A program made the position numbers and the translations under genes. 64,000 nucleotides of DNA. Source: Candidatus Aenigmatarchaeota archaeon (GTDB taxonomy: Archaea; Aenigmatarchaeota; Aenigmatarchaeia; QMZP01; QMZT01). The stretch spans positions 132,183-196,182 of the forward strand of contig JAFGCI010000001.1 in NCBI GenBank assembly GCA_016932735.1, read 5' to 3'. Position 1 is the first letter of the stretch. Each line of letters starts with the position of its first letter. The notes beneath the pieces were generated by a model. The model made no database searches. It saw nothing but the letters and a program-made list of their open reading frames with translations, and was not told where the DNA came from. Of the stretch, positions 714-60,701 are shown piece by piece.

Positions 714-3700
714 ATGGCGGGGGACAGGTTCTTGTACAGGAAAAATATTCTTCTTTTAACAACGTTAGTCGCTTTTGCTTTGTCGTTCGCCTTCATGGCG
801 CAGGCTTTCGATTTGGAAGGAGCCTATTTCATCACAGCCGAACAGCCGAAGAATTCCGATGGATTGGGATTCTTCAGGATAGGGACTCCGCTCGACGCGG
901 ACGTCAACATAAGCTTCAGCTACCCGATACCGCTCAGCCCTGGAGAGGCGGATCTGACAGCTGTTGTATACAAACCAACGAACATATTCACGAACATGGA
1001 ACTGCCATGTTCTTTGAATTCACAGACTGGGTATTATCCAGTCAATGTCCAGCACAGATACTATGTCCCACAAGATGTGTGGTATCAGTATTATAGAGCT
1101 GGTGGAAGATTCAATTACCAATCGAGTGCATGTATAAATGGATTGGTCCATGTGTTTACAGAACCCTTTGAAATGAACACAATATCCCTCGGCGACATAA
1201 TCAAGGCAGGCGACATCAACGGCAACCAGATTGTCTCCGGCAACCCGCCGACATACGACTTCAAGGAGTATTTCTTCGACTTCACCCTGAACCTCACATA
1301 CGACAACGTAAGCGAGGAGGGAATCGACTTCAAGTACAATTACACGAGGGATATAGAAAAGACAGAAATGAGTAATACGGACGACTTGGAAGTGGCTTTG
1401 CCTACCGGAGACAATAAATATCATTTTGAAGACTATGATAACTATGTCGAGTATAGAAATTTATTAGCACCCCCCAAAATAGTTTATCATGATACCGACG
1501 ACGGGGATTCAAATGAAGTATTTGATTCTGAAATATATGTATACTCAGAAACAGTGAAAGCTGTCACTTTTTATGTTAGAGGTTATAATGATGACTCAAC
1601 TATAGACGACAAAGCCGCAATAAACATATATCAGGCAGGAAATCCTACCGCATTGAGCAGTTCTGGTTGGAAGGAGCACAGTCCTTTCTATCACAGTTTC
1701 ACATTCCTGCCCGGAATCGAATACAGAGTCCAGTTCAGGCTGAAAAATAGAGCCGATCATGATAACGAACATGCACATTTTGAAGTTCAGATATCCAGCC
1801 CTTCCATAACAAACCATAACCAAATATGGAGTGTCATAAATTCGGGAATTTTCAATGTTGATATAAATCAGGAATTCTGGAAGATTACCCAGCGCCAAGG
1901 CATATTTGATGCAAACAATAACCAGCGGCTTGATAATTATTGTTCGGGGCCTCAGGATTTTTATGTAAAGGCCGCTACCGGTATTAAATCTGAAAGTTGT
2001 GACGGAACGGATGTCGTCATAACAGCAACCAATCAGGCCGGAGATTCAGACGATAAAGTGGCTCATATAGCAAATGGAGGATTTTTATTCTTTAAACAGG
2101 ACGATATGAACGATACAAGCTATCATTTCGAAACTGTCGTAAGAACAGGAAAAGCCCTTGAAATAGAATTTGCTGTCATGGTAAATTACGGAGTTTCGGT
2201 TTATGTTGACGGCGACCTTTCCAAGGGATTCAGGATAGGATGTCCTTCCGCTGAAGACTGTGCTAACCAGAACTACTATACACCGTCAGAAAAGCTAAAC
2301 ATACCGGCCGGTTATCACAAGATTGATATCTACCTTTTCTGCAAGGACGGGCAGAAATGTTTCCTTGAGATGAAAGCCATAGAGAAAAATGGAAACGCGC
2401 CGGAGATATTTTTCAAGGATAATTTTGATGAGATAGGAAAACCCGTCGACAGCAATCTTGAAAAAAACCCAATCGAAGCAAATTCCGGACAGGCCGTCAC
2501 ATTCTCAACCGAAGACGGGCTTGTCGATGTTGAAAGGAAAGAGCCTGTTTATTTTGAATCAGGCCTTTACAAGGATCTTGAGCCTGTCAAAGCTGATAAT
2601 GTCGATGAAGCAGATGACAGGATCCAGCTTTCAATGAGGCTTGCATGCGGCGAGCAGATTTACCAGCCGTGCAGGGACTTCGGAAAATGGGGTGCCTGCA
2701 CCACCGATAACAACGGCTGGATAAGGAACAGGATACTCCATGAGAATTACGCCGATTACGAATTGGTGGAAGACGATAACGGGGACTATACAATAGCCAA
2801 ATTCACAATAGAGCCCTTTGACCATCACAGCCTTGATTATACCAACAATGCAAATGCACCGAACCAGCCGGGGCAGCATAACAGGACAGCTTACGGCGGT
2901 GAATACATCGGCGGAATATACGAGTGCAAGATGAACTGGCCGAACTACGAGACTGAATGCCCGGACCCCACCTACCAGTACAGCTTCAGCGGCTTTGAGT
3001 GCTGCTACCAGAAATACACAGAGGCTGACAATAAGCCGACAGGCCCTGTCTGGTGGTCCGGAATATCCAAGGATCCCGATACTGGAGAGCAGGTGGGAAC
3101 AATCCATATAAGGGACTTCAAGGAATCCACCCAGACGTCGGGGGAAGCCGTCATTTACATTGTCAATTATCTTCCATATGGAGGCTACACTTCAAAACTC
3201 GATGCAGAGTACATGAACTTCTCCATGTTCGACGAGCGCCCGAAATTGTGCGCGTATGTAACCAAGAAGGTGTCCCTTCCGCATGAATATCTCATAACTT
3301 TCAACAACACACATACATGCAATAAGGTGTCAGCGACGGGAGACTGCTGCTACTGCGACCCCAACTCGGTCTGCACGCTGAACTGCAAGAACAGGGAAGA
3401 CATAACGGACATGTATTATGCTACCTCCCTGATAACGGCGAACAGCCTGAGGGCGTCGAGCTTCAACCTCCCCTTCACGACAATGGGAAGCGGATGGTAT
3501 CTTGAGAACATAAACGTCTCCGTAATAGTCGACAGCGATACGGGAAGCAACGTGTCCGTTTCCGTGGAAAATACGAGCGCCACGAGATGGAAGACGACAG
3601 CGGAAATGAAAGAAGGCTCGCAGAGGCTCCTTCAGGAAGGAAACTACACCGTTTCCGTCAATCTTCACCACGATTTCGGCTTCAATGTCTCCGACGACAA

Positions 3701-6700
3701 TCCGGGGACATATTACGTAAACTTCACCCTGGATTACATCAATTTCAGCAAGAGGACTTATTCAGACGCCGAATTTGATTTCGGCAGCAATGAGATGGGG
3801 AACAGCTCATGGGAAATATACCTGAACCAGTACAATCAGGACGACTACCCCTCAAGCGTCAGGGACCAGTATGTCTCCTACTCTCCCCTCAAACCGCAGG
3901 AGATTGACGTTAAGAAGATATCGTTCTCGGGAGAGTCGGGAAGCATAGTCGATTACGGGAAGAGGATAAGCTTCAGAGCGCCTCCCAAGAACCAATATGA
4001 ATGTGAGACAGCCGCAGAGTTCGCGGCTTATTGTACAACATGCAGTGGAACATCAACGCGGGGTCACTGGGACGGCACGAAATGTGTATGTAGTTATCCT
4101 TCCGAATCAGAAAAAGGCATTTGTTTTGAAGTTGATGTACAAGCTGGGTGTAATTCTAATTGTTGTGTATGCCCAGAATCATTTAATAATCCGGTGATAT
4201 ATTGGAATCGTAATGTATGCCAATGCACCGAGTCTAGGGCAGATAACAAACCGCCAACAATAACAATATTAAATGAATCTGGAAGCACAATAAATGATAA
4301 CACGGCAACTATTAAAGGCACGGCATACGACTTAGGAGGGCTTGCAGATATTAGAATTTCTATTGAATCTACAGAACAACGACAAATTGCAACTCTTAAT
4401 GACTTGGAAGAAGGCGAATATGAATGGGAAGCGGAGTTATCGTTCTCATATCCGGCTACATATACCGTTTCAGCTACAGCAACCGATTTGGGACGCAATA
4501 CAAATAGTGTTTCAATCACAATAACAGTTTCGGACACCGCCTTCCCTCCGACAATAACAATAAACGCGCCTGAAGAAGGGCATGAATTCTTCACGACAAC
4601 AACCAAAGTGAATCTTGAAATATCAACAAACAGGGACGCTTTATGCAGGTACTCTACCAGCGATTTGGGTTATGATGAGATGGAGCCGACACAAAACTTC
4701 ACAGAGGAGAATCCTACAACAAACTTCAAAGCAGAAGTGCCTGTCTACTCGAACCAGAGATATACATACTATTTTGCATGCACTGACGGAACAAAAAGCC
4801 ACACATCAGCAGACAATTCGCAGGTTTCCTTTGATGTTCTCGGGGTTGGAGGCAGAGAGCCAATCGACTTGGAATGTTCCGAAGAAATTGTTGATGAAAG
4901 CACATGCACTGTGGACAAGTGCAACTGCGGGCCTGACGGCGGGATACCAATCTGGAACGCGCACAGGGGTTGCATCTGCACCAAATGGGACAATGTCTGC
5001 AGGGACGTGACCGACTGCAAAGAAGACAGGAACGGCGGGCCTAACCAATACCGCTACTGCGACACGGAATACAATATGTGCTATGACAATGAATACACTT
5101 CCTCGAACCTTAAGCTTGCCGGAGGCACGGAGCCTCGGAACAACATTAATTTCACGGCTTCCGAATGCACGGTAATAGGCTCCGAGACGAGGTTCATCTA
5201 TGACTGGAAAAGTCATCCCGGAACTTACGACGATTTCGGAGCATGCGCATCCGACGGGACCTGTCCGGACGGCGGCATCTGCGCATTTGTGAATGAAATA
5301 GAAAGCAGGTGCATCCTTCCGAGGGGCGGGTGCTCCCTCGGTTTGCAGGTGTGCGGCCCCGGCTACAGATGGCTTTATGCGGAGAGCGAGGAGGAGCCCG
5401 TGTACAACAAGCCAGAAACCTGCAACCGAATTGACGACGACTGCAACGGCTGGATTGACGATACTGTCAACTTCACCACAATGTTCAAGATATCCCTCGA
5501 GCTTGCCGGAAGCGGAATAGGAAGGAGCCCGCAGGAAATCACGCAGTGCCAGTGCTTCAACGGGCTTCCCCCTGAAGAGGAAGTCTGCGATTCCATAGAC
5601 AACGACTGCGACGGAATCATAGACAACGACGTAAAATACGTCCTCAGGAACAACTGCACAGAAGAGGTCTTGACGATTATTGATATAGGCAACCCTCCCA
5701 CAGGATACAGCCTTTATGATTTTGCCTACAACAAATATTACAGCGATGAGTGCACCATTACAAACGAAACAATACGTGAAACCCAGAACCTGACTGTCAA
5801 CCCCTGCACTGACGAGGTTTATGAATGCATGCAGCTTGGCAAATATCACACAGAAATAATTTATAACAACGACACAGATGAATATGAATTTCCTTATAGA
5901 TTTGAAGATTGCACTACACAATTATGCCTTGATGGCTGTATAGAACATGGATATAGTTCGGTCCCCAACGATACAGCGCAACTTGAATGCGAAACCTATT
6001 TCGGTAGTGCCAGCGAATGCTGCTATAAGATGGGCTATAATACAAATCCGCCTATACCAGACAATGCTCTCCAGAATACATACGAATATTGCGCCGAGAA
6101 ATATTATAATCCTTACACATGCATCCCACTTGAAGAAGAGATGTACTATGTCCCCGGAGAATTATGCAATTGTGAATTCACTGGAACCATGTATGATTCA
6201 GGCGGAATAACACAAGAATATCTGGATTTCATAAAAAAGGTGGATTCAAACAACGAAAGCTATTGCTCATCTTACACACCTTTTAGCACCGAATGTTGTA
6301 ACGGCATAGACGACAACTGCGACGCGCTTCTGGACAACACGGAATATCCGGAATTGTGTGCATGTTACGGCATTGATAATACAACCATCAGAGACGAAAC
6401 GTGGACTATAAATGACATGAATTGTACAGGAAGGGACGAGAACTGTGACGGGACTATAAACGAGAACGCATTATTTTGTAATTGTACGCAAACATTAAAC
6501 CTTCCAAACGCTACGACAATAAAAGAAGCTTTGATTTCTGATGAAAGTTGTAACGGCATAGACGATAACTGCAATAATGAATATGATGAAGATTTCCCTG
6601 TCAACACCTCTTGCGGAGGAACCAATGTAAGCAGGTGTTATGGCGGAGTGTATGTGTGCAACGCTACGGGATATAATGCTGTTTGCAATACAACAGCAGA

Positions 6701-9700
6701 CATATCGGAAATAAATACAGATGAGGGATTTTTTGGTACAGCGACAGGTGCTGATCTTAGAATACCTGAAGTTTGTAGTGGGGAAGATAGTGACTGCAAC
6801 GGGACAGTCGATGACACTGCACATCCGGAGCTTTGCAACTGTTATAATTATGAAAACTTGTGGGAGATTCAGGACATATGGGAAAACAACACAGACGACA
6901 ACTGCAACGGAATAGACGACAACTGCAACATGAGAATAGACGATGAATCCTTCAGTTGCGCATGCACGAACAAGACAGAGTCAGAGGTTGTCCAGATAAA
7001 GACTGTCAACGAGACCTGCGACGGCATCGACAACAACTGCAACGGATTTGCAGACGAGACATATTCCGATATTGGAAAGATGTGCGGATTCGGCGCGTGC
7101 GCAAACGGCGTGATGGTATGCGATGTCTACGGAATGAGGACTGTCTGCAACACGACAGTCGATGCGGCAGACACTTACAGCGGAATCGCGCAGAGCTTCA
7201 TAAGCGACGAAGTGTGCGACCTTGTCGGCGACGAGGACTGCGACGGCTCAATAGACGAGGGATGCGCCTGCACCCCGCAGGGCATAAAGAAAATATGCGG
7301 ATACGCGTCTGAGCTCGTCTACAATAACAGGCAGCACATCGACAGCATTTGCAATGAGATAAGAAGCCAGCTAAGGAACATGGTATCCAAGTCTTCCTCT
7401 CCGGGAGACATGAAATACAGGAGAACAATCAAAATAAAGAACAGCAATAGTTATGTTGTTAAGGACTATCCGGTCAGGGTCGACCTTTCGGTAATAGGCT
7501 CGACAAAGATAAGAAGCGATTTCGGCGACGTCAGGGTTCAGGATGCAAGCGGAAATGAGCTTCCGTGGAGAAGGGACGGCGGTTCAATCGTGTTCAAATC
7601 GAGTCTCCTGAGCGCCGGAAACAACAAATATACATTATATTACGGAAGCCCTGTCAGGACATATTCCGAGAAGTCAATGACGGAAATATACGGGCTTGAA
7701 AGATATCAGGAGACATTCCTGATGTGCGACTTCAATTACAATACACAATGCAATAAGGGAAACATGGTTCCAAGGGCATCTGACGTTTCAGTATTCAGCA
7801 TCGGAAGATATGAAGCGGCCATGCTTTTCAATTCAACAAATCACACTCTGCGATACGCCTCATCCGCAAACATAAACCTCAACAGAGGAACAGTCGAGAT
7901 GTGGATAAAGACATCTTCTTCATCAGGGACTCTGTTCCATCTTCCTGCGGCTGCAGGTTCAATAAAGCTTGAGATAAATGCGGGAGCCGCTTCTCTGGCA
8001 AGAGACTCTTCTGTAATAGCAAGCGGCGGGTCGGTATCAGACGACCAATGGCATCATATAGTCGTTGGATGGGATAATCTCATTGGAATGAGCCTTTATG
8101 TTGATGGGAACAAAGTCGGAGGATCTGTAGTGGCATGGACTCCGAACAACATGGGAACCGATATATTCATAGGTTCCGAGCAGGGCGCTGCAAATTATTA
8201 TGCAGGTCTTATCGATGAGCTCAGAATTTCAAAGACAAAGCTGAGCGACGGCGAGGTAAAGGCAGATGCACGCCTGCTCGGAGGAAGCATCTCACCATCC
8301 CTTGCTAACGAAGAGGACATGGGAAGTGTCGGCGGCGGTTCCGGACAACTGACTGATTCAGAATTATATTATGAATGCCTGGAAAGGCTGGAGAATGCGG
8401 CAGGCGCTCCCGAGAACTCAGACAACGAGAACAGCATCCTTAGCCTGTGCTCATCAATGATAACATGCAACAGCGACTTCAGCATTGATTCTGCAAGCGT
8501 CTGCAGGGTCGGAGTCCAGAGCTGCAGCTCATCGGGATGGAGCGATTGTTCAGGAAACGTCGTCCCGCAGACAGAAGTTTGCAACAGGAGAGACGACGAT
8601 TGCAACGGTTTGACTGATGATTTCCTTTATGCACAGGATACATGTGCATGCTACAACGGGAACCCGCCGAACGGCCCCGAAGAGTGCAACGGTGTGGATG
8701 ACGACTGCAACGCCCAGGTTGATGACGGCTTCGGCGGCAGATGCGCCTGTTCAAGCGGCCAGAGAGCGCAGGGAGATGAGCCGAGGATATGCAATGGAAT
8801 AGACGACAACTGCAACGGGATAATTGATGAGAATGTATCCAACTGCGCCTGCGCGGACGCAACATTCGCTGAAATAAACCAAAGGGTTGGCACTGAGAGA
8901 TGCAACGGCATTGACGACGACTGCGACGGCGAGATAGACGAGGACTTCGCTAATGTGGGAAACACATGCGGGGGAGACCAGAACAGCGCCTGTTATGGCG
9001 GCTACTATATCTGCAAAGCGGACGGAACAGGGACAGTTTGTTCGACCACTACAGACGGAGTCCAGTTGCTGGGCAACCTTACCAGTATTGACCTGAGGAC
9101 AGATGAAACATGCAATGGAATAGATGACGACTGCGATGGTGAGAGAGACGAGAACATTCCTAGGTGTGCATGTGCTGACGGAGCCCAGAATACGGGCGGA
9201 TATGAACCGCAGGTCTGCAACGGAATAGACGACAACTGCAACGGACTTATAGATGAAGGAGTCCTGAAATGCCCGTGCGCAGACAAGACTCTTGAAGACG
9301 TTGAGAGCTTCATAACACCTGATTTGACATGCGATGATATTGATAATGACTGCAACGGGATTGTTGATGACCAGTATCCTCAGCTAGGAGAAGTATGTGG
9401 CGGCAACCCAAGGAGCGCATGTTATGGAGGCAAGTATGTATGCAGTATCGATGAGGTTTCAGTTGTCTGCAATACTATGACTCCGCCTGAAAATTCCTTC
9501 ACCGGAAAGACCATAGACAGAAGAAGTGAAGAGAGCTGCAACGGAATAGATGACGACTGCAATGATGTAATAGACGATCTGGCCGGCAGCAACTCAAACA
9601 GATATTGCGCCTGTTACAACGGAATGCGCCTTCCCGGGGAACTCGTGGAAAGATGCAACGGAATTGACGAGGACTGTGACGGCGTGATAGACAACAACGT

Positions 9701-11168
9701 CCCAATGTGCGGATGCTCAGGCGTGAGCACTATGATAAGCAATTCAAAGCTTGTCCAGACAATCGACGGAAAGAGAGCGTCTTCTGAAATCTGCAATAAC
9801 ATTGACGATAATTGTGACGGCGGCATAGATGACGGCCTCGGAAAGTCATGCTATTGCACCGGCGGATACAACGGAACCGCGCTTGGAAGGCCCGAATTCT
9901 GCAATGCAGTTGATGACAATTGCAACGGGGTTATTGATGATATACCAAAGCCGTATGCATGTGCATGCTATAATGGCGCGCACGGGGCAGGGGAGCTCAC
10001 AGAAATATGCAACGGCATAGACGACGACTGCAACGGAATAGTCGATGAAGAATATCCGGAGAAGGGAGCTTTCTGTGGCGTAGGTATATGCACGGGGGGC
10101 ATGTACGAATGCTCCCAGGACAACCTGACGACAACCTGTTCCGGTAACAGGAGAGCGATTTCAGCCGCCCTCGAACATCCGTCATACTGCAACACATATG
10201 ACGACAACTGCAACATAGCGGTAGATGAAGGATGCGGCACGAACGCATCTGTGACTAACAGAAGCTGCGGCAGCGATATTGGTGAATGTTCTTCCGGCCT
10301 TCAGCTGCTGGTCGGGGGAAAATGGGGCCCATGTATGACAATAGGCCAGAACAGGCTCAAGGGGCCCGAAATAGAGGTTTGCGACAGCCTTGACAATGAC
10401 TGCGACGGTATAATAGACAACATAGGCGGAAAGACATCCACAGAAACAACAAGATGCGGTTGTTACGGAGGTGCCCAGCCTTCGACTGAAGAATGCAACG
10501 GCATCGACGACGACTGCGACGGGACTATTGACAACATCGGCGGAAAGACGTCTGTTGAATCCACTAAATGCGGCTGTTATGATGATGAATACGGAAGAGG
10601 AGCCAGCATTGAAAGATGCAACGGAATAGACGACGACTGCGACGGTATAGTCGATAATGTCAAGGAAGAAGAGTCTGTTGAAGCCACGAAGTGTGGATGC
10701 TACGGAGGACTTGTCCCGACGGCCGAAAGATGCAACGGCATTGATGACAACTGTGATGAGCGCATAGACGAGGATTTCGTTGAACTGGGAAAAGAATGCG
10801 GTATCGGTTACTGTTCAGGCGTATACATATGCAGCCAGGACGGTCTGCAGTCCGTGTGTAACGGCAACACTCCCACAACAGAAATATGCGATTCGATAGA
10901 CAACGACTGCGACGGCAAGATAGATGAGGGCTGTTACGGCAGTGAGCTAACGAGCTGCGAAAACGGAATCAGGGACGGTCGTGAAGAGGGCATAGACTGC
11001 GGCGGTCCATGTCCGGATGAATGCATGGGAACGCACGGACCTTCTGTCGATGACCTCAATACAAAGAAAGAAAACATAAAAAGCACATGGTTCACTATAT
11101 TCCTTGTAATGGTTGTTCTTATTATAGGCATAGGCATCGTCCTGCAATTCGGCCTGAAAACCAAGTAA
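714..11168 (+). CDS. Giant 3,484-aa secreted and anchored surface protein. It has an N-terminal signal peptide, Cys-rich modules, tandem Ig-like domains, a LamG/ConA-like lectin domain, about 27 MopE-like/TSP3-like Cys-Asp repeats of the form CNGIDDDCDGxIDE, and a C-terminal TM anchor.
   Basis: A single uninterrupted 10.4 kb ORF. The N-terminus is MAGDRFLYRKNILLLTTLVAFALSFAFMAQA, a signal-peptide-like segment. The C-terminus is WFTIFLVMVVLIIGIGIVLQFGLKTK, a TM helix followed by a basic tail. Repeats such as CNGIDDDCDGIVDE and CDSIDNDCDGKIDEGC recur about 27 times. A LamG motif region reads GTVEMWIKTSSSSGTLFHL...YAGLIDELRISKTKLSDGE. Ig-like segments read KPPTITILNESGSTINDNTATIKGTAYD...TYTVSATATDLGRNTNSVSITITV. 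Confidence 0.9.
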   Translation: MAGDRFLYRKNILLLTTLVAFALSFAFMAQAFDLEGAYFITAEQPKNSDGLGFFRIGTPLDADVNISFSYPIPLSPGEADLTAVVYKPTNIFTNMELPCSLNSQTGYYPVNVQHRYYVPQDVWYQYYRAGGRFNYQSSACINGLVHVFTEPFEMNTISLGDIIKAGDINGNQIVSGNPPTYDFKEYFFDFTLNLTYDNVSEEGIDFKYNYTRDIEKTEMSNTDDLEVALPTGDNKYHFEDYDNYVEYRNLLAPPKIVYHDTDDGDSNEVFDSEIYVYSETVKAVTFYVRGYNDDSTIDDKAAINIYQAGNPTALSSSGWKEHSPFYHSFTFLPGIEYRVQFRLKNRADHDNEHAHFEVQISSPSITNHNQIWSVINSGIFNVDINQEFWKITQRQGIFDANNNQRLDNYCSGPQDFYVKAATGIKSESCDGTDVVITATNQAGDSDDKVAHIANGGFLFFKQDDMNDTSYHFETVVRTGKALEIEFAVMVNYGVSVYVDGDLSKGFRIGCPSAEDCANQNYYTPSEKLNIPAGYHKIDIYLFCKDGQKCFLEMKAIEKNGNAPEIFFKDNFDEIGKPVDSNLEKNPIEANSGQAVTFSTEDGLVDVERKEPVYFESGLYKDLEPVKADNVDEADDRIQLSMRLACGEQIYQPCRDFGKWGACTTDNNGWIRNRILHENYADYELVEDDNGDYTIAKFTIEPFDHHSLDYTNNANAPNQPGQHNRTAYGGEYIGGIYECKMNWPNYETECPDPTYQYSFSGFECCYQKYTEADNKPTGPVWWSGISKDPDTGEQVGTIHIRDFKESTQTSGEAVIYIVNYLPYGGYTSKLDAEYMNFSMFDERPKLCAYVTKKVSLPHEYLITFNNTHTCNKVSATGDCCYCDPNSVCTLNCKNREDITDMYYATSLITANSLRASSFNLPFTTMGSGWYLENINVSVIVDSDTGSNVSVSVENTSATRWKTTAEMKEGSQRLLQEGNYTVSVNLHHDFGFNVSDDNPGTYYVNFTLDYINFSKRTYSDAEFDFGSNEMGNSSWEIYLNQYNQDDYPSSVRDQYVSYSPLKPQEIDVKKISFSGESGSIVDYGKRISFRAPPKNQYECETAAEFAAYCTTCSGTSTRGHWDGTKCVCSYPSESEKGICFEVDVQAGCNSNCCVCPESFNNPVIYWNRNVCQCTESRADNKPPTITILNESGSTINDNTATIKGTAYDLGGLADIRISIESTEQRQIATLNDLEEGEYEWEAELSFSYPATYTVSATATDLGRNTNSVSITITVSDTAFPPTITINAPEEGHEFFTTTTKVNLEISTNRDALCRYSTSDLGYDEMEPTQNFTEENPTTNFKAEVPVYSNQRYTYYFACTDGTKSHTSADNSQVSFDVLGVGGREPIDLECSEEIVDESTCTVDKCNCGPDGGIPIWNAHRGCICTKWDNVCRDVTDCKEDRNGGPNQYRYCDTEYNMCYDNEYTSSNLKLAGGTEPRNNINFTASECTVIGSETRFIYDWKSHPGTYDDFGACASDGTCPDGGICAFVNEIESRCILPRGGCSLGLQVCGPGYRWLYAESEEEPVYNKPETCNRIDDDCNGWIDDTVNFTTMFKISLELAGSGIGRSPQEITQCQCFNGLPPEEEVCDSIDNDCDGIIDNDVKYVLRNNCTEEVLTIIDIGNPPTGYSLYDFAYNKYYSDECTITNETIRETQNLTVNPCTDEVYECMQLGKYHTEIIYNNDTDEYEFPYRFEDCTTQLCLDGCIEHGYSSVPNDTAQLECETYFGSASECCYKMGYNTNPPIPDNALQNTYEYCAEKYYNPYTCIPLEEEMYYVPGELCNCEFTGTMYDSGGITQEYLDFIKKVDSNNESYCSSYTPFSTECCNGIDDNCDALLDNTEYPELCACYGIDNTTIRDETWTINDMNCTGRDENCDGTINENALFCNCTQTLNLPNATTIKEALISDESCNGIDDNCNNEYDEDFPVNTSCGGTNVSRCYGGVYVCNATGYNAVCNTTADISEINTDEGFFGTATGADLRIPEVCSGEDSDCNGTVDDTAHPELCNCYNYENLWEIQDIWENNTDDNCNGIDDNCNMRIDDESFSCACTNKTESEVVQIKTVNETCDGIDNNCNGFADETYSDIGKMCGFGACANGVMVCDVYGMRTVCNTTVDAADTYSGIAQSFISDEVCDLVGDEDCDGSIDEGCACTPQGIKKICGYASELVYNNRQHIDSICNEIRSQLRNMVSKSSSPGDMKYRRTIKIKNSNSYVVKDYPVRVDLSVIGSTKIRSDFGDVRVQDASGNELPWRRDGGSIVFKSSLLSAGNNKYTLYYGSPVRTYSEKSMTEIYGLERYQETFLMCDFNYNTQCNKGNMVPRASDVSVFSIGRYEAAMLFNSTNHTLRYASSANINLNRGTVEMWIKTSSSSGTLFHLPAAAGSIKLEINAGAASLARDSSVIASGGSVSDDQWHHIVVGWDNLIGMSLYVDGNKVGGSVVAWTPNNMGTDIFIGSEQGAANYYAGLIDELRISKTKLSDGEVKADARLLGGSISPSLANEEDMGSVGGGSGQLTDSELYYECLERLENAAGAPENSDNENSILSLCSSMITCNSDFSIDSASVCRVGVQSCSSSGWSDCSGNVVPQTEVCNRRDDDCNGLTDDFLYAQDTCACYNGNPPNGPEECNGVDDDCNAQVDDGFGGRCACSSGQRAQGDEPRICNGIDDNCNGIIDENVSNCACADATFAEINQRVGTERCNGIDDDCDGEIDEDFANVGNTCGGDQNSACYGGYYICKADGTGTVCSTTTDGVQLLGNLTSIDLRTDETCNGIDDDCDGERDENIPRCACADGAQNTGGYEPQVCNGIDDNCNGLIDEGVLKCPCADKTLEDVESFITPDLTCDDIDNDCNGIVDDQYPQLGEVCGGNPRSACYGGKYVCSIDEVSVVCNTMTPPENSFTGKTIDRRSEESCNGIDDDCNDVIDDLAGSNSNRYCACYNGMRLPGELVERCNGIDEDCDGVIDNNVPMCGCSGVSTMISNSKLVQTIDGKRASSEICNNIDDNCDGGIDDGLGKSCYCTGGYNGTALGRPEFCNAVDDNCNGVIDDIPKPYACACYNGAHGAGELTEICNGIDDDCNGIVDEEYPEKGAFCGVGICTGGMYECSQDNLTTTCSGNRRAISAALEHPSYCNTYDDNCNIAVDEGCGTNASVTNRSCGSDIGECSSGLQLLVGGKWGPCMTIGQNRLKGPEIEVCDSLDNDCDGIIDNIGGKTSTETTRCGCYGGAQPSTEECNGIDDDCDGTIDNIGGKTSVESTKCGCYDDEYGRGASIERCNGIDDDCDGIVDNVKEEESVEATKCGCYGGLVPTAERCNGIDDNCDERIDEDFVELGKECGIGYCSGVYICSQDGLQSVCNGNTPTTEICDSIDNDCDGKIDEGCYGSELTSCENGIRDGREEGIDCGGPCPDECMGTHGPSVDDLNTKKENIKSTWFTIFLVMVVLIIGIGIVLQFGLKTK
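5421..7270 (+). repeat. Block 1 of in-frame tandem Cys/Asp-rich repeats (about 9 copies, C-x-G/R-I-D-D/N-D-C-D/N-G) inside the giant CDS. The repeats are also visible at the DNA level, e.g. tgcaacggaatagacgacaactgcaa.
   Basis: Recurrent translated motifs: CNRIDDDCNG, CDSIDNDCDG, CNGIDDNCDA, CTGRDENCDG, CNGIDDNCNN, CSGEDSDCNG, CNGIDDNCN, CDGIDNNCNG, CDLVGDEDCDG. Confidence 0.8.
8580..10935 (+). repeat. Block 2 of tandem Cys/Asp-rich repeats (about 18 copies). Many copies are near-identical at the nucleotide level, e.g. tgcaacggaatagacgacgactgcgacgg.
   Basis: Motifs from CNRRDDDCNG, CNGVDDDCNA and CNGIDDNCNG through CDSIDNDCDGKIDEGC. The spacing between Cys pairs is regular, and an Asp/Glu-rich loop of the form DxDxDGxIDE resembles Ca-binding loops. 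Confidence 0.8.
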
Positions 11169-50730: not shown

Positions 50731-50769
50731 GCCCTTTTCATATTTTCAATTGACTTAGGTGATTTTTAG

Positions 50770-54167: not shown

Positions 54168-54644
54168 ATGAGAACTGCTCCTTACGTTGACAGGGTTAAG
54201 CTCATAGAGACTGGTGGTTTTTTCGAGCCCTTCTTCAGGTATATCTCGAAAGAAGCTCAGGATTTCAAAGGTGTCATCGCAAGATGCTCTTCTGAAAGGC
54301 TTATGGAAGCTCTTGAAAGTTCCGGAACTGAACATTCGCCTGCAATAGAATCCGGTAACGGCAATTTCCACTTACGTATTTTTGGAGGTAAAGGATTGCC
54401 GGAAGATTCCGTTTATCAGCAGGTGGAAGGCTATCTGCATTCAAGTGATTTGATGGATTCGAGGGGCAGTATGCCGGAAGATTTCTTTGGAAAAAGCGTC
54501 ATACATATAATAGACCCCAGAATTGCAAGAGACCTTCCGAGAGAGCACATAGGAAATTATCAGAAAGGAGTTTCCGAATGCTGCAGATACAACGGCTTCA
54601 GGGATCCGTACTATCTTGTGACATTCTCTCATTCTTCTATCTAG
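54168..54644 (+). CDS. Hypothetical protein.
   Basis: 158 aa ORF, divergent from the DedA gene. No motif recognised. Confidence 0.35.
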   Translation: MRTAPYVDRVKLIETGGFFEPFFRYISKEAQDFKGVIARCSSERLMEALESSGTEHSPAIESGNGNFHLRIFGGKGLPEDSVYQQVEGYLHSSDLMDSRGSMPEDFFGKSVIHIIDPRIARDLPREHIGNYQKGVSECCRYNGFRDPYYLVTFSHSSI

Positions 54645-54761
54645 GCGCTGTGCCATCTGCAAACGATTATAAATGTTGTTCTGCAATTATGCTATATGCA
54701 AGAAAGCCAATGCAACTTGAGCCCGAGAAGCCCGTGCCCAAGACCTAGCTCCTGCTAGATT

Positions 54762-54866
54762 CATTGGCCCTTTGCTCACCTTTTCTGTATAGATTTTCCT
54801 GAGTGAGGTAATCTATTTTGTCCGGAATGTATGCGGGTGAGCTGAAGCTATAATGGAGGAAACGAA
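54762..54866 (+). promoter_or_regulatory. Copy 1 of a conserved upstream element: cattggccctttgctcacc ... ggtgagc-N-aagctata ... ggagga.
   Basis: The 19 nt cattggccctttgctcacc (54762..54780) is identical to 55221..55239. gctcacc pairs with the downstream ggtgagc (54836..54842) in both copies although the intervening 48 to 55 nt differ. aagctata and ggagga are also shared, immediately 5' of paralogous small ORFs. Confidence 0.45.
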
Positions 54867-55121
54867 ATGGGAAAACAACATAAAATGATGTTGCTAATGG
54901 AAGACGGAAGCGGCATCAGAGCTGAATATCATCCGGCCACGAGGCTTTACATCTCAACCGATACCGGCGAAGGATTATTTTTTTCCGGGAAGAAAAACGG
55001 TTATACAACTCCATTTGAAATTTCTAAACAGCCGGAAAGATACAAATATGTTGTCATGTCATCCCGCGGAACCGTTCGCTCAATAAGCAATTCAAGAATA
55101 AAACACGTTTACATTAATTAG
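54867..55121 (+). CDS. Small hypothetical protein, a paralog of the 55321 ORF.
   Basis: 84 aa. MMLLMEDGSGIRAEYHPATRLYISTDTGEGLFFSGKKNG aligns with MTIELEDGTKIVIEGNGKPETYRIRDTDFMIGFVWRSAGKG of the next ORF (shared EDG, I, E, Y-I, DT, F, G-K-G). Confidence 0.45.
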   Translation: MGKQHKMMLLMEDGSGIRAEYHPATRLYISTDTGEGLFFSGKKNGYTTPFEISKQPERYKYVVMSSRGTVRSISNSRIKHVYIN

Positions 55122-55220
55122 TTTTATAAATGTTTTCTACTAAAAAGTAAACTATGATTGCAAACCAGTGGAACTATAGCTTTGAATTTTATTTCAGCTT
55201 TTATAGCTGTTAAGCTGTTC

Positions 55221-55320
55221 CATTGGCCCTTTGCTCACCTTCTTCTTGACAAATAACTGAAAGCGAGTTATATTGATTCAGGATTTCGGTGAGCGAAAGC
55301 TATAGAAAAGGAGGATTGAG
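55221..55320 (+). promoter_or_regulatory. Copy 2 of the conserved upstream element.
   Basis: cattggccctttgctcacc at 55221..55239, ggtgagc at 55288..55294, then aagctata and ggagga before the ATG at 55321. Confidence 0.45.
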
Positions 55321-55644
55321 ATGCCGGAAGAAAAAAATACAATGACAATAGAACTCGAAGATGGAACAAAGATTGTCATAGAAGGTAATGGAAAACCTGA
55401 AACTTACAGGATTCGTGATACTGACTTCATGATAGGTTTTGTATGGAGAAGTGCCGGTAAGGGGACCAGAATGAGTAGCTTGTCTCCTGTTCCGGGAATA
55501 GGAAAATATCCCCATGGAATAGAAGCAGGTACTGTTAAAAAATCATACAGATCCAGAATCTGTAATTTCAGCGGAACTTACGCAAATACTGTTTTCGAGA
55601 GTGGTGTACCTATATCTATTCTGGTATCATATGAACAGAGATGA
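55321..55644 (+). CDS. Small hypothetical protein, a paralog of the 54867 ORF.
   Basis: 107 aa. Shares the N-terminal core with the 54867 ORF. Its stop overlaps the ATG of the next ORF (atga). Confidence 0.45.
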   Translation: MPEEKNTMTIELEDGTKIVIEGNGKPETYRIRDTDFMIGFVWRSAGKGTRMSSLSPVPGIGKYPHGIEAGTVKKSYRSRICNFSGTYANTVFESGVPISILVSYEQR

Positions 55645-55844
55645 TTAATATGGACGATTCCAAAAAATCAGACCTCTCAACGATTGGAGGAGAAGCAGGT
55701 TACAGGGCATTAACAGCATATATGAAAGAAGTTTGCAGTAGACTGAACCAGAGCACGGGGGCTGAATACGATAATCTGGTTTATAGACTGACAGGAAAAA
55801 CCGCTGCCCAGAGAGCTAAAGAAAGAGAAGAGAATCATAAATGA
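55641..55844 (+). CDS. Hypothetical small protein, translationally coupled to the preceding ORF.
   Basis: 67 aa. The ATGA overlap with the upstream stop suggests co-translation. Confidence 0.35.
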   Translation: MINMDDSKKSDLSTIGGEAGYRALTAYMKEVCSRLNQSTGAEYDNLVYRLTGKTAAQRAKEREENHK

Positions 55845-57147: not shown

Positions 57148-58722
57148 ATGTATAGCCTTCAAATACTGGCAGGTAGAGCTCAGATGGCAGAAAACGACAG
57201 GAAACATAAGAAATACACATCAAAAGAAGAAGATATTGATTCTCTAGATAAAGAACAGGATAATGATGAATCAGTTAGAAAGGATTATCCGGTAAAAGAA
57301 GAAAGCGAATATGATAAAAGTATTCTTATAGAGCCTATTGAAGATAAAAAAGAGACAGACAAAAAAACGGCCAAAAAGAAAACTAACGGCTCTCCTATCC
57401 GTTCCGTCCTTAAAAAATCCATGATAGGCATGGAAGTCGAGATGTTCACTCTTGATGAGAATGGGAACATGGCCAATCTTGCCGACGTCCTGATAAAAGA
57501 GGTCAAAAAGAAATATCCCTTGGTCGGAACTGCGAAGGAAGCCGGCAGAAGCACGATAGAAATCAAGAGCTTCCCAAACGAGGCCATCAGCGATACCATG
57601 GAACACCTTCTTGAGGAAATGGAGAGCGTCCTCATATGCGCTGAAAAAGAGAATATAAGGCTTTTCCCGCTGGGAACATTTCCCGGCTCATTTACACCTG
57701 ATATGAGACAAGACACTCCTTATCTGCTCAAAGAGCAGATTTTTGGGAAAAACAGGTTCCTTATAGCAGGACGCTGTGTAGGCCTCCACATACATTATAC
57801 ACTTCCGTGGGGGGTATTTGACAGCAAGCAGAAAATCCTCAAGAGGCTTCATCGCTCAAAGAACCAGCAGACAATGGTTGGCAGCTACAATCTTCTTATT
57901 GCAATGGATCCGGCTCTGACAACATTCATGCAGTCCTCTCCCTTTTATCAGGGCAAATATATAGGCAAGGACTCGCGTGTTATTGTCTATAGGGGGGGTT
58001 CGGATTTTGATTATCCGCAGGGCCTTTATGCAAACTATTATGCATTCGGTGCTTTGCAGCCATACAAGCAGACGAACACGGATATGATTGACGTTATTTT
58101 CAGGAAATATGACGAATGGAAGAATATAATCCAGAAGATAGATATGAACCTGAGGGTCTTCTCAAAACACGGTTCGATACTCGACACTACGTGGAATCCT
58201 GTAAAGGTCAATGCCGTCGGGACACTTGAGCAGAGAGGGATGGATACAAACCATCCCATGTATATGACGGCAGCGGGAGCCCTGATAAAATATATCCTGC
58301 GATATGTAGAGGATGAAAACATTAATGTCATTCCTTCGGATATCGGTGTTGCAGAGCCATTCAAGCTGGAAGGTAACGTAATGTACATACCTCCACATAC
58401 CCATGTGAGAAAGAATCTCCAGAGGAACGCCGCTTATGACGGTCTTGACAACAGGGAGGTTTACGATTACTGCAAAATACTGCTTAAGCTTGCATCCCAA
58501 TGCATTCCCAAAGATAAGGAAGTCCTTCTGGACCCTTTCAGGAAGATAATAGATGAGAAGAAAACAGTATCCGACGAAATCATTGAATTAGCCAAAAAGA
58601 AGGGAGCGGATCTCAAAGAAACGCTCCCGAAAAGCATCGTGACTGAGATAGCATTGGAGCATTCCGGACGCCTGTTCAAGGAGATTGTGCTTACAAAGAA
58701 GATGCTCCATGACCTGAAGTGA
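57148..58722 (+). CDS. GCS2-family (YbdK-like) carboxylate-amine ligase with an N-terminal low-complexity extension of about 100 aa.
   Basis: IGMEVEMFTLDENG aligns to YbdK LGIELEMQVV. CVGLHIHYTLPW aligns to GQHVHVG. VGTLEQRGMDTNHP aligns to GTVEVRVMDTP. The first 100 aa are D/E/K-rich and disordered-looking; the catalytic domain may start at the internal Met (MIGMEVEM). Confidence 0.75.
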   Translation: MYSLQILAGRAQMAENDRKHKKYTSKEEDIDSLDKEQDNDESVRKDYPVKEESEYDKSILIEPIEDKKETDKKTAKKKTNGSPIRSVLKKSMIGMEVEMFTLDENGNMANLADVLIKEVKKKYPLVGTAKEAGRSTIEIKSFPNEAISDTMEHLLEEMESVLICAEKENIRLFPLGTFPGSFTPDMRQDTPYLLKEQIFGKNRFLIAGRCVGLHIHYTLPWGVFDSKQKILKRLHRSKNQQTMVGSYNLLIAMDPALTTFMQSSPFYQGKYIGKDSRVIVYRGGSDFDYPQGLYANYYAFGALQPYKQTNTDMIDVIFRKYDEWKNIIQKIDMNLRVFSKHGSILDTTWNPVKVNAVGTLEQRGMDTNHPMYMTAAGALIKYILRYVEDENINVIPSDIGVAEPFKLEGNVMYIPPHTHVRKNLQRNAAYDGLDNREVYDYCKILLKLASQCIPKDKEVLLDPFRKIIDEKKTVSDEIIELAKKKGADLKETLPKSIVTEIALEHSGRLFKEIVLTKKMLHDLK

Positions 58723-58723
58723 T

Positions 58724-59956
58724 ATGATGGTTCTCGGCATCGGTGAAAAATACAATAATACCCTTCTCAAAAATCCGGACCTTTCTGAAAAGACGTTCAG
58801 CTATATCAGAAAAGAATATGAAAGAAACAAAATTATGATGGGTAACAGGTTACTTCCATTTTTTCTGACACCGAATTTTATTTCTGAATCCCGAGACAAT
58901 CTAATCATGCAAAGCTCTGAAAGGATGGCTGGGATACTTGAAAAAATAGGAAAAAATATTCTGAGGAAAAGCCATGAATCCAGATTGAATGTGATAAACA
59001 GGATGGATTTCTTCTTCCATGAAGGAAAAATAAAATTCATAGAATTTAATGCGGACAGCCCCTCCGGTGCCGGAAGGCTTGATATAATCAATAAAATTTT
59101 TTCAGAAATCCCGATAATTTCCGGAATAAAAGAAAATAAAGAGATGAGAGAATCCCTTCTGGAAGCTCTTTTCAACTCTTACAAAGAATGGGGAGGAAAA
59201 AAAGAAAAACCGACCATAGCGCTAATAGATTGGAAGGGTGTCAAGACAATATCTGACCAGAAACTTATTGCACAATATTTCAATGGGAGGGGATTCAGAA
59301 CAATCCTTGCGGACCCCAGAGAACTGAAATATAAAAAAGGGAAAATGTTCTCAGGAGAAACGGAGATAGACATTCTCTACAAGCGTGTTATAATAAAAGA
59401 GCTTCTCGATAAGAAAGAAGAATGCAGAGACCTTTTTTCCGCGATTTCAGATAATTCAATTTTCATTTCCAACCCCCTTGAATCGGGAATTCTGGGCGAG
59501 AAGAAACTCATTTCAAGGATGGCCTCCGGAGAATTTGACAAAATTCTGACGGAAGACGAAAAAAGTTTCCTAAGAGAGTATCTGCCTTGGTCAAAAGAGG
59601 TTAACGTTAATCTCAAAGAGAAAATCATTTCGGAAAAAAACAAGCTGGTTCTTAAACCGGATGAAGGCTATGGCGGAGAAGGAGTCAAAATCGGAAAGTT
59701 CCTTTCAGAAGAAGAATGGAAGAAAGCAGTTGATATATCTATTTCAGATAGCGGTTGGACTGTGCAGGAGTACATAGATGTACCGGCAATAAAAATCTTT
59801 GATAAGGGAAAAATCACAAAGAAATTCATGAGTATGTCATCGTTTGTTTTCGGCGGAAAATATGCGGGATGCATGACACGTGTCTCCGATGATCCTGTCG
59901 TCAATACCAGCAAAGGTGGAGGAATAATACCGACGTTCGTTTTAAAGAAGGGTTGA
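58724..59956 (+). CDS. Circularly permuted ATP-grasp superfamily ligase.
   Basis: The ATP-grasp core motifs occur near the C-terminus: LVLKPDEGYGGEGVKIG, WTVQEYIDV, and R..N.s.GG (MTRVSDDPVVNTSKGGGIIP). No Mg-binding E-x-N segment follows, which implies it is relocated N-terminally (circular permutation). The gene starts 2 nt after the GCS2 stop. Confidence 0.65.
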   Translation: MMVLGIGEKYNNTLLKNPDLSEKTFSYIRKEYERNKIMMGNRLLPFFLTPNFISESRDNLIMQSSERMAGILEKIGKNILRKSHESRLNVINRMDFFFHEGKIKFIEFNADSPSGAGRLDIINKIFSEIPIISGIKENKEMRESLLEALFNSYKEWGGKKEKPTIALIDWKGVKTISDQKLIAQYFNGRGFRTILADPRELKYKKGKMFSGETEIDILYKRVIIKELLDKKEECRDLFSAISDNSIFISNPLESGILGEKKLISRMASGEFDKILTEDEKSFLREYLPWSKEVNVNLKEKIISEKNKLVLKPDEGYGGEGVKIGKFLSEEEWKKAVDISISDSGWTVQEYIDVPAIKIFDKGKITKKFMSMSSFVFGGKYAGCMTRVSDDPVVNTSKGGGIIPTFVLKKG

Positions 59957-59966
59957 CAATATTTCA

Positions 59967-60701
59967 ATGAGTGGTGCAATGATAATCGATTTTCATACGC
60001 ACATAGGACACAGCCACGACGGCTCCGAACAGACAATACCAGAACTTGAATCGAATATGAAAAAGCTGGGGATTGACAAATCTGTTGTTTTCAGCATTGA
60101 CGATAAAGACATGTCGAGGGAAGAACTTAGCTTCAAAATAATGGAAGACGTGAGGGGCGATGACTCATTGATACCTTTCTTCAGGTTTGACCCGAAAAAA
60201 ATGAAAGCTGAGAATCTGGAGAGAATCCTGAAAGATTTCCACGGAGTCAAGCTTCATTCGAGAGCGGAGGATTTTAATCCGCTGGATAAAAAGTTCTTTC
60301 CTCTTTACGAAGCCATTGAGAAATCGGGAAAGCCTCTTCTGTTCCATACAAAGAAATACCATCTGAAGCAGACAGACCCCGCGGAAATTGTAAGGATTGC
60401 GGAAGAATTCCCTAAGTTAAAGCTGGTTCTTGCCCATTTTGCAGGCTCGCAGCCACTCGTTTTTAACTATGTTGAAAAGAACGGGCTTGGCAATGTATAT
60501 TTCGACACTTCGGTGAATTGCACGCAGTTCTACATAAGAAGCATAGGCGAAAAACTGGGCTTTGACAGGATACTGTTCGGCTCCGACTGCCCCTACTCGG
60601 ACCAGGAAGTGGAGCTTCTGAAAATAAAGAAACTGGAAATCGGCGACGATGACAAAAACAAAATTCTGGGGCTCAATGCAAAGAAATTACTTAATTTGTA
60701 G
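59967..60701 (+). CDS. Amidohydrolase-2-type metal-dependent hydrolase (TIM barrel).
   Basis: The N-terminal MIIDFHTHIGH (HxH metal site) and the later HFAG...D pattern over 244 aa fit the Amidohydro_2 family. Confidence 0.7.
   Translation: MSGAMIIDFHTHIGHSHDGSEQTIPELESNMKKLGIDKSVVFSIDDKDMSREELSFKIMEDVRGDDSLIPFFRFDPKKMKAENLERILKDFHGVKLHSRAEDFNPLDKKFFPLYEAIEKSGKPLLFHTKKYHLKQTDPAEIVRIAEEFPKLKLVLAHFAGSQPLVFNYVEKNGLGNVYFDTSVNCTQFYIRSIGEKLGFDRILFGSDCPYSDQEVELLKIKKLEIGDDDKNKILGLNAKKLLNL

Follow-up and report, generated by a model that had tools for sequence, protein, structure and literature searches.

Leader-peptide attenuation is a textbook bacterial mechanism that depends on ribosomes acting on nascent or freshly made mRNA. 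In the classical transcription attenuators of aromatic amino-acid genes, such as pheL and trpL of E. coli, a short leader peptide rich in Phe/Tyr/Trp codons lies upstream of a gene of the aromatic pathway, and in C. glutamicum the aroR leader peptide (Phe-Tyr-Phe) controls the aroF DAHP synthase operon (PMC11802643). In mycobacteria, leaderless polycysteine short ORFs act as translational attenuators: the short ORF is the first cistron and is followed by about 100 nt of structured RNA and an SD-led gene, and control is at translation without an intrinsic terminator (Canestrari et al., bioRxiv 10.1101/834739). In ermC/cat-type translational attenuation, the SD is sequestered in the ground state and the system responds to drug-stalled ribosomes. 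For Archaea, ribosome profiling of Haloferax volcanii found translated small ORFs in the 5' regions of mRNAs, some of them conserved, but no amino-acid-specific codon bias, conserved RNA structure, or regulatory role was reported for them in what we read (PMC7261190, PMC10117724). One paper states that promoter recruitment is the only known target of archaeal transcription regulation (PMC8448881), and in the literature that we searched we found no amino-acid-sensing leader peptide described for Archaea.

Here we describe a conserved mRNA leader of about 170 nt, inferred from sequence alone, in a DPANN archaeon. It begins with a tiny upstream reading frame (uORF) that is rich in aromatic codons in one of two copies, and in close relatives this copy precedes DAHP synthase, the first enzyme of aromatic amino-acid synthesis. 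Like the mycobacterial attenuators, it has a putatively leaderless short ORF that is enriched (in most members) for one class of amino acid and is followed by predicted structured RNA and an SD-led gene. However, in mycobacteria the Cys codons are consecutive and their tract pairs with the region around the SD, while here the aromatic codons are interspersed and such pairing is not supported. Also, the promoter is of the archaeal type, and two conserved helices and an AGCUAUA block have no counterpart in the mycobacterial systems. As in the classical attenuators, a helix involves leader-peptide codons, and leader B would control a DAHP synthase gene as aroR does, but we found no terminator hairpin with a U-tract and no antiterminator alternative (archaeal termination works differently), and the uORF is inferred to be leaderless rather than SD-led. 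In contrast to ermC/cat, the main GGAGG is predicted to be largely unpaired, and the sequence that is buried in a hairpin is instead a GGUGAG that resembles this organism's usual SD.

Anatomy of the two leaders

We analyzed a 64,000-nt stretch (the window) of a Candidatus Aenigmarchaeota MAG; ORF A, ORF B, and EF-2 of the window are identical to proteins JW716_01055 and JW716_01060 and to the EF-2 of a 209-kb contig. A first-pass annotation had reported that an exact 19-nt motif and a distant inverted repeat occur before each of two paralogous small ORFs, and this observation is correct. The motif (CATTGGCCCTTTGCTCACC) is at 54762-54780 and 55221-55239 without mismatches, and there is no other copy in the window at up to three mismatches (0.01 expected). 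The exact repeat is actually 21 nt (54762-54782 and 55221-55241). GCTCACC is followed by GGTGAGC after 55 nt in copy A and 48 nt in copy B, and these are the only two such matches in the window (0.00 expected). GGTGAGCnnAAGCTATA follows at 54836-54852 and 55288-55304, and then GGAGG and the ATGs of an 84-aa ORF and a 107-aa ORF. The two ORFs are weakly similar (29% identity over 77 aa, pairwise E = 0.004) and align end to end with the ORF A orthologue of a relative.

The annotation needs two corrections. First, the similarity of the two copies is not limited to the motifs: it runs from a TATA-like box about 95 nt upstream of the motif to the main ATG. Second, the stem was described as covarying between the copies, but its 7-bp core is identical in both and invariant in all seven members of the family that we describe below. 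The features of the two copies are as follows.

54666..54673 (+), TATA-like box of leader A (ATTATAAA), ending 23 nt before the uORF ATG.
54696..54758 (+), uORF A, 20 codons plus stop: MQESQCNLSPRSPCPRPSSC.
54706..54712 (+), 5' arm of helix H1 of leader A (GCCAATG, uORF codons 4-6), which pairs with 54762-54768.
54762..54782 (+), exact 21-nt repeat, copy A: H1 3' arm (CATTGGC), linker, and H2 5' arm (CTTTGCTCACC).
54774..54842 (+), hairpin H2 of leader A (core arms GCTCACC 54774-54780 and GGTGAGC 54836-54842, with a variable interior hairpin).
54846..54852 (+), AGCTATA block, copy A.
54855..54859 (+), GGAGG Shine-Dalgarno-like site of ORF A, 7 nt before the ATG at 54867.
54867..55121 (+), ORF A, 84 aa, an orphan.
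55123..55130 (+), TATA-like box of leader B (TTTATAAA), ending 24 nt before the uORF ATG.
55154..55213 (+), uORF B, 19 codons plus stop: MIANQWNYSFEFYFSFYSC (8 aromatic).
55165..55174 (+), H1 5' arm of leader B (CCAGTGGAAC, uORF codons 4-7), which pairs with 55217-55226.
55221..55241 (+), exact 21-nt repeat, copy B: H1 3' arm, linker, and H2 5' arm.
55233..55294 (+), hairpin H2 of leader B (core arms 55233-55239 and 55288-55294).
55298..55304 (+), AGCTATA block, copy B.
55310..55314 (+), GGAGG Shine-Dalgarno-like site of ORF B, 6 nt before the ATG at 55321.
55321..55644 (+), ORF B, 107 aa, an orphan and weak paralogue of ORF A, in the place of DAHP synthase in relatives.
55641..55844 (+), a 67-aa ORF that overlaps the stop of ORF B and is probably on the same transcript.

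Thus, the motif is two things joined together. The upstream part of each leader contains CCAATG or CCAGTGG, which is complementary to the CATTGG at the start of the motif, so that the first 7 nt of the motif (CAUUGGC) form the 3' arm of H1. The last 11 nt (CUUUGCUCACC) form the 5' arm of H2 and pair with GGUGAGCnAAAG. Single-sequence and alignment folds recover both helices. H1 and upper H2 use G-U pairs and the + strand has lower folding energies than the − strand, which favors an RNA reading on the + strand.

Conservation of the leaders and their downstream genes

ORF A and ORF B have no homologues in a search of 5.8 billion proteins and no Pfam or NCBIfam match. A two-sequence profile of ORF A and ORF B gave only weak hits to repeats in large surface proteins, and an AlphaFold model of ORF B had a pLDDT of 44. 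Because ORF A and ORF B are orphans, we used EF-2 as an anchor to find relatives. The synteny is kept only in the closest relatives (locus L026; locus L027 ends too early) and is lost at 83% (locus L028) and 76% EF-2 identity. The closest relative with enough flanking DNA is GCA_964554465.1 (locus L026, EF-2 89% identical), which keeps the synteny and both leaders. Its leader A precedes an 88-aa ORF that is only 31% identical to ORF A, although the leaders are about 82% identical in DNA. Its leader B stands before a DAHP synthase gene. The identity of this gene is well supported: it matches Pfam DAHP_synth_1 and DAHP_snth_FXD, it scores 328.5 bits against the NCBIfam model for 3-deoxy-7-phosphoheptulonate synthase (just under the cut-off of 335), and it aligns from residue 1 with the solved T. 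maritima enzyme (E = 1e-73).

We also scanned metagenomes for CATTGGCC N3-6 GCTCACC N40-70 GGTGAG. This returned 94 stretches, of which, by checks of the flanks, about 90 are chance and four (L051, L112, L110, and L094) are members of the family. L051 is nearly identical to L026 and carries both copies. L112 has a leader that is 92% identical to leader B, again before a DAHP synthase (71% identical to the L026 enzyme). The enzymes of L026/L051 and L112 are of the T. maritima type, with the regulatory FXD domain. L110 and L094 have much more diverged leaders, which precede a homologous pair of 70-76-aa ORFs of unknown function, next to gatD/gatE-like genes. In total there are seven distinct leaders from four lineages of Aenigmarchaeota-like contigs, and they share the plan of leaders A and B.

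The window has no DAHP synthase, and tblastn found no remnant of one. Instead, ORF B and the 67-aa ORF sit in its place, between leader B and a conserved gene with a Kazal domain. DAHP synthase follows leader B in L026, L051, and L112, while in the window, L094, and L110 the downstream ORFs have unknown function, and only one of four downstream gene families has a known link to aromatic amino acids. Leader DNA is 82-92% identical between orthologues, whereas the body of ORF A is too diverged to align by blastn.

Other searches did not extend this small family. A scan of the GTDB representative genomes (which do not include the source MAG) with GGCCCTTTGCTCACC N35-65 GGTGAGC gave three chance hits in Actinomycetota. 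Two scans of viral contigs gave 21 hits to a 15-mer, none of which passed a stricter pattern check, and no hits to a second pattern. A covariance model of the leader, run over the window and 14 loci (246 kb), found only the sequences that it was built from. A scan of the window for other short ORFs at this distance from a TATA box found none that were convincing. Rfam gave no hit at gathering score over the whole window, and the only hit at E ≤ 10 within 54500-55700 is a chance miRNA match on the other strand; ARAGORN found nothing relevant. By eye, we found no TRAP-like GAG/UAG repeats, no K-turn or C/D boxes, and no T-box-like UGGN pairing.

Upstream reading frames and RNA structure

In all seven leaders, a box like TTTATAAA ends 22-24 nt before an ATG that is preceded by a pyrimidine. 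In archaeal promoters, the TATA box is centered near −26/−27, with a pyrimidine at −1 and a purine at +1, so this is the expected position of a transcription start and we infer that the uORF is leaderless. From this ATG the frame stays open for 17-20 codons and ends 3-7 nt before CATTGGCC. The predicted peptides are:

window leader A: MQESQCNLSPRSPCPRPSSC
L026 leader A: MHSQWNLDPRSPSPRPSFC
window leader B: MIANQWNYSFEFYFSFYSC
L026 leader B: MIAKQWNYNFEVYFSFYSY
L112: MNSNQWKYSFEAYFSFYSC
L110: MSVCQRSYRYMSFWYFYQ
L094: MQNSQRNYFGFGYFFSR

The B-type, L110, and L094 peptides are 35-42% Phe/Tyr/Trp (8/19, 8/19, 7/19, 7/18, and 6/17), and in the uORF frame only. Against dinucleotide shuffles, the P values are 5e-5 to 5e-3 in three independent lineages whose nucleotide sequences differ in this stretch. 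Among the three B orthologues, the seven codons that are always aromatic show a single change, which is synonymous, while eight other codons change non-synonymously. The uORF of leader A is not rich in aromatic residues but has a conserved Pro/Arg/Ser tract (PRSPxPRPS). Between the window and L026, a 3-nt indel keeps the frame of uORF A, all four Pro codons and both Arg codons of this tract are kept, and the changes in the tract include two synonymous ones. This pattern, in which codon identity is kept and the rest of the peptide is free, is what sensor leader peptides show.

The 5' arm of H1 is uORF codons 4-7, always in the register xxC-CAR-YGx, and its 3' arm starts 2-7 nt after the stop codon, which is inside the footprint of a terminating ribosome. 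H2 follows after a 2-nt linker and ends 22-27 nt before the main ATG in six of seven leaders (L094 has an insertion of about 90 nt there), next to AGCUAUA and the GGAGG site. Both helices are conserved but not proven. In the alignment, 95.5% of cells are paired, but almost all pairs are invariant, only one pair shows a two-sided change, two of seven sequences have a C-A mismatch in H1, and 45 of 500 shuffles reach the covariation score, so the covariation is not significant. A few isolated compensatory changes exist: G-C to A-U at the base of H1, and A-U to U-A in upper H2 among the B orthologues. H2 interiors are only weakly more stable than shuffles (z from +0.4 to −2.7). We also note that the invariance of CATTGGCC, GCTCACC, and GGTGAG in the metagenome members was imposed by our search pattern. 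In contrast, AGCUAUA (invariant in all seven), the uORF, the TATA spacing, and a UUCUUG tract are independent of it.

We did not find an output element. There is no conserved U-tract after H2. The predicted probability that the SD is unpaired is 0.15-0.62, and the accessibility of the SD and AUG does not change consistently when ribosome footprints on the uORF are masked. The SD region is not more complementary to any other leader segment than shuffled controls (duplex z-scores of −1.5 to +1.3), so a switch by SD sequestration is not supported. Contiguous 8-10-bp matches between the uORF codon tract and the AGCUAUA flank exist in five of seven leaders, but this pairing is no stronger for cognate than for non-cognate pairs (−10.3 against −9.8 kcal/mol). 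No conserved alternative helix was found.

The usual Shine-Dalgarno sequence of this genome is GGTGA-like (17 of 50 long ORFs in the window, against 2.1 expected), while GGAG/GAGG is not enriched (4 against 3.5 expected). The 3' arm of H2 (GGUGAG) therefore looks like a normal SD, and its 5' arm (GCUCACCUU) looks like the 3' tail of 16S rRNA. The comparison to 16S is inferred, as the window holds no rRNA. H2 may hide a ribosome-binding sequence or an anti-SD sequence.

A proposed leader-peptide sensor and its alternatives

We propose that each copy of the motif is the core of the leader of an mRNA that starts at, or within a few nucleotides of, the ATG of the uORF. Any ribosome that translates or terminates on the uORF would have to melt H1. 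The speed of ribosomes on the uORF would report the supply of charged tRNA and set the expression of the downstream SD-led gene, most likely at the level of translation. The sensed codons would be Phe/Tyr/Trp in leader B and its relatives and the Pro/Arg/Ser tract in leader A. What the analysis demonstrates is the anatomy of the leaders, their conservation, the codon bias, and the link to DAHP synthase; the transcription start, the translation of the uORF, and the sensing are inferred. The evidence is entirely computational, rests on seven sequences, and lacks a defined output step. We consider this reading somewhat more likely than not, and it is the best explanation that we have.

The interpretation in the first-pass annotation is partly supported. 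It argued that the motifs are under selection and may lie in a structured 5' leader, with an attenuator as one option, and these points are supported: an attenuator is the best fit. It missed the conserved uORF, which is what makes sense of the element. Covariation of the long-range stem is not supported. A tight link to the paralogous small ORFs is also not supported, because the same leader precedes DAHP synthase or an unrelated 70-76-aa ORF elsewhere.

A second possibility, which seems unlikely, is a riboswitch or a binding site for a regulatory protein, in which H1, H2, and AGCUAUA are the functional parts and the short frame is incidental. The blocks CAUUGGCC, GCUCACC, GGUGAG, and AGCUAUA are sequence-invariant rather than covarying, as expected for a recognized sequence, the leader is linked to unrelated downstream genes, and the H2 core looks like a duplex between an SD and a mimic of the 16S tail. 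However, no Rfam family matches, the variable regions are large, and there is no conserved junction or loop core. Also, this reading does not explain the ATG at start-site distance from the TATA box in all seven leaders, the open frame, or the frame-specific aromatic bias.

Third, and less likely still, the unit could be an independent small gene, either a dual-function RNA of about 150 nt or a gene for 17-20-aa aromatic-rich micropeptides that act on their own, placed upstream of other genes by chance or convenience. The unit carries its own promoter and is better conserved than the ORFs that follow it, and uORF-like small ORFs, with unknown roles, are translated in Haloferax (PMC7261190, PMC10117724). 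But no oligo-T terminator separates the unit from the SD-led ORF, which starts 22-27 nt after H2 in six of seven leaders, and the peptide sequences are not conserved beyond composition, which is typical of sensor peptides rather than functional ones.

Fourth, the first-pass annotation had suggested that the inverted repeats could be regulator-binding sites and that AAGCTATA could be a TATA box, giving leaderless mRNAs that start at internal Mets. AGCTATA is invariant and contains TATA, and the repeats are palindromic as DNA. Nevertheless, we reject AAGCTATA as a TATA box. With the 22-24 nt spacing of the upstream promoter, the transcript would start 6-8 nt inside the main ORF. No internal Met is conserved (the next in-frame Met of the L026 ORF A is at codon 19), GGAGG followed 5-9 nt later by ATG is conserved in all seven leaders, and the DAHP synthase aligns from residue 1 with solved homologues. 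As for operators, a reading that we consider very unlikely, the half-sites are 45-55 bp apart, and H1 and upper H2 contain G-U pairs that would be mismatches in DNA.

Finally, a neutral leftover of a recent tandem duplication that included the flanks would fit the adjacent units and weakly paralogous ORFs but is contradicted by cross-genome conservation. The ORFs have diverged to 29% identity while 21 nt stay identical, both copies are kept in another species, and related leaders occur at unrelated loci in other lineages.

A bolder form of our proposal, which is tentative and which we consider somewhat less likely than not, is that this is the first case of ribosome-mediated, amino-acid-sensing leader-peptide control in Archaea, in which the leaderless uORF reads out Phe/Tyr/Trp-tRNA (and, in a diverged copy, Pro/Arg/Ser-tRNA) and acts through a new output module, hairpin H2, which would pair the organism's usual SD sequence (GGUGAG) with a mimic of the 16S rRNA 3' tail. 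A conserved, codon-biased, leaderless uORF in front of DAHP synthase would be a concrete and testable archaeal case. It would also suggest a way to find more, by scanning for short ORFs at start-site distance from TATA boxes that have a skewed amino-acid content, and it would show that a DPANN lineage, with its reduced genome, keeps cis-acting regulation of a biosynthetic gene.

Shine-Dalgarno sequences and variation within the leaders

Among the 50 longest ORFs in the window, the usual Shine-Dalgarno sequence is GGTG/GTGA, which is present at −18 to −4 for 17 of the 50 ORFs (2.1 expected; for example, at 50752-50769 before EF-2). In contrast, GGAG/GAGG is not enriched (4 ORFs, 3.5 expected). 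The GGAGG before ORF A and ORF B is therefore atypical, and the GGUGAG arm of hairpin H2 looks like a normal Shine-Dalgarno sequence.

In the A-type leaders, a second, overlapping frame of 12 codons starts at the ATG inside the 5' arm of helix H1 (window 54710-54748, MQLEPEKPVPKT; 5671-5709 of L026, the closest relative with enough flanking DNA, MELGSEKSEPQT). This frame is also open in both orthologues. The leader of L094, a more diverged metagenome member, has an insertion of ~90 nt between AGCUAUA and the Shine-Dalgarno site (L094:6130-6240, − strand). The insertion contains AGCCGUUG, a near copy of the uORF end AGCCGUUA. Both can pair with UAACGGCU, which lies just after AGCUA; this could be an alternative-pairing pair that is peculiar to this member.

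Weak similarities of ORF A and ORF B

A profile of ORF A (54867-55121) plus ORF B (55321-55644) weakly matches a unit of ~75 amino acids that is repeated five times in a 495-amino-acid protein (E = 2e-7). It also matches stretches of a 2301-amino-acid Ig/SprB-repeat T9SS protein (E = 2e-4). AlphaFold predicts that ORF B is all-beta, but with low confidence (pLDDT 44).

Gene content around the leaders

The following genes lie near the leaders or elsewhere in the window:
L094:6424-6741 (−), a pterin-4a-carbinolamine dehydratase gene, directly upstream of the L094 leader on the same strand
L112:2570-3340 (+), an IS1595/ISXO2-like transposase gene (Pfam, E = 1e-28)
Window 57148-60701, a conserved trio of genes downstream (GCS2-like glutamate-cysteine ligase family, ATP-grasp/GSP_synth, and amidohydrolase), which is also present in L026
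Window 714-11168 (+), a single ORF of 3484 amino acids

In L112, a metagenome contig with a B-type leader, the transposase gene sits where the window and L026 have leader A plus ORF A, and the similarity to the window breaks just upstream of the TATA box of leader B. A different change is seen downstream of leader B when the window (55321-55844) is compared with L026 (6303-7373). In the window lineage, the DAHP synthase gene has been replaced by ORF B and a 67-amino-acid ORF, while the leader upstream and the Kazal-domain gene downstream have been kept.
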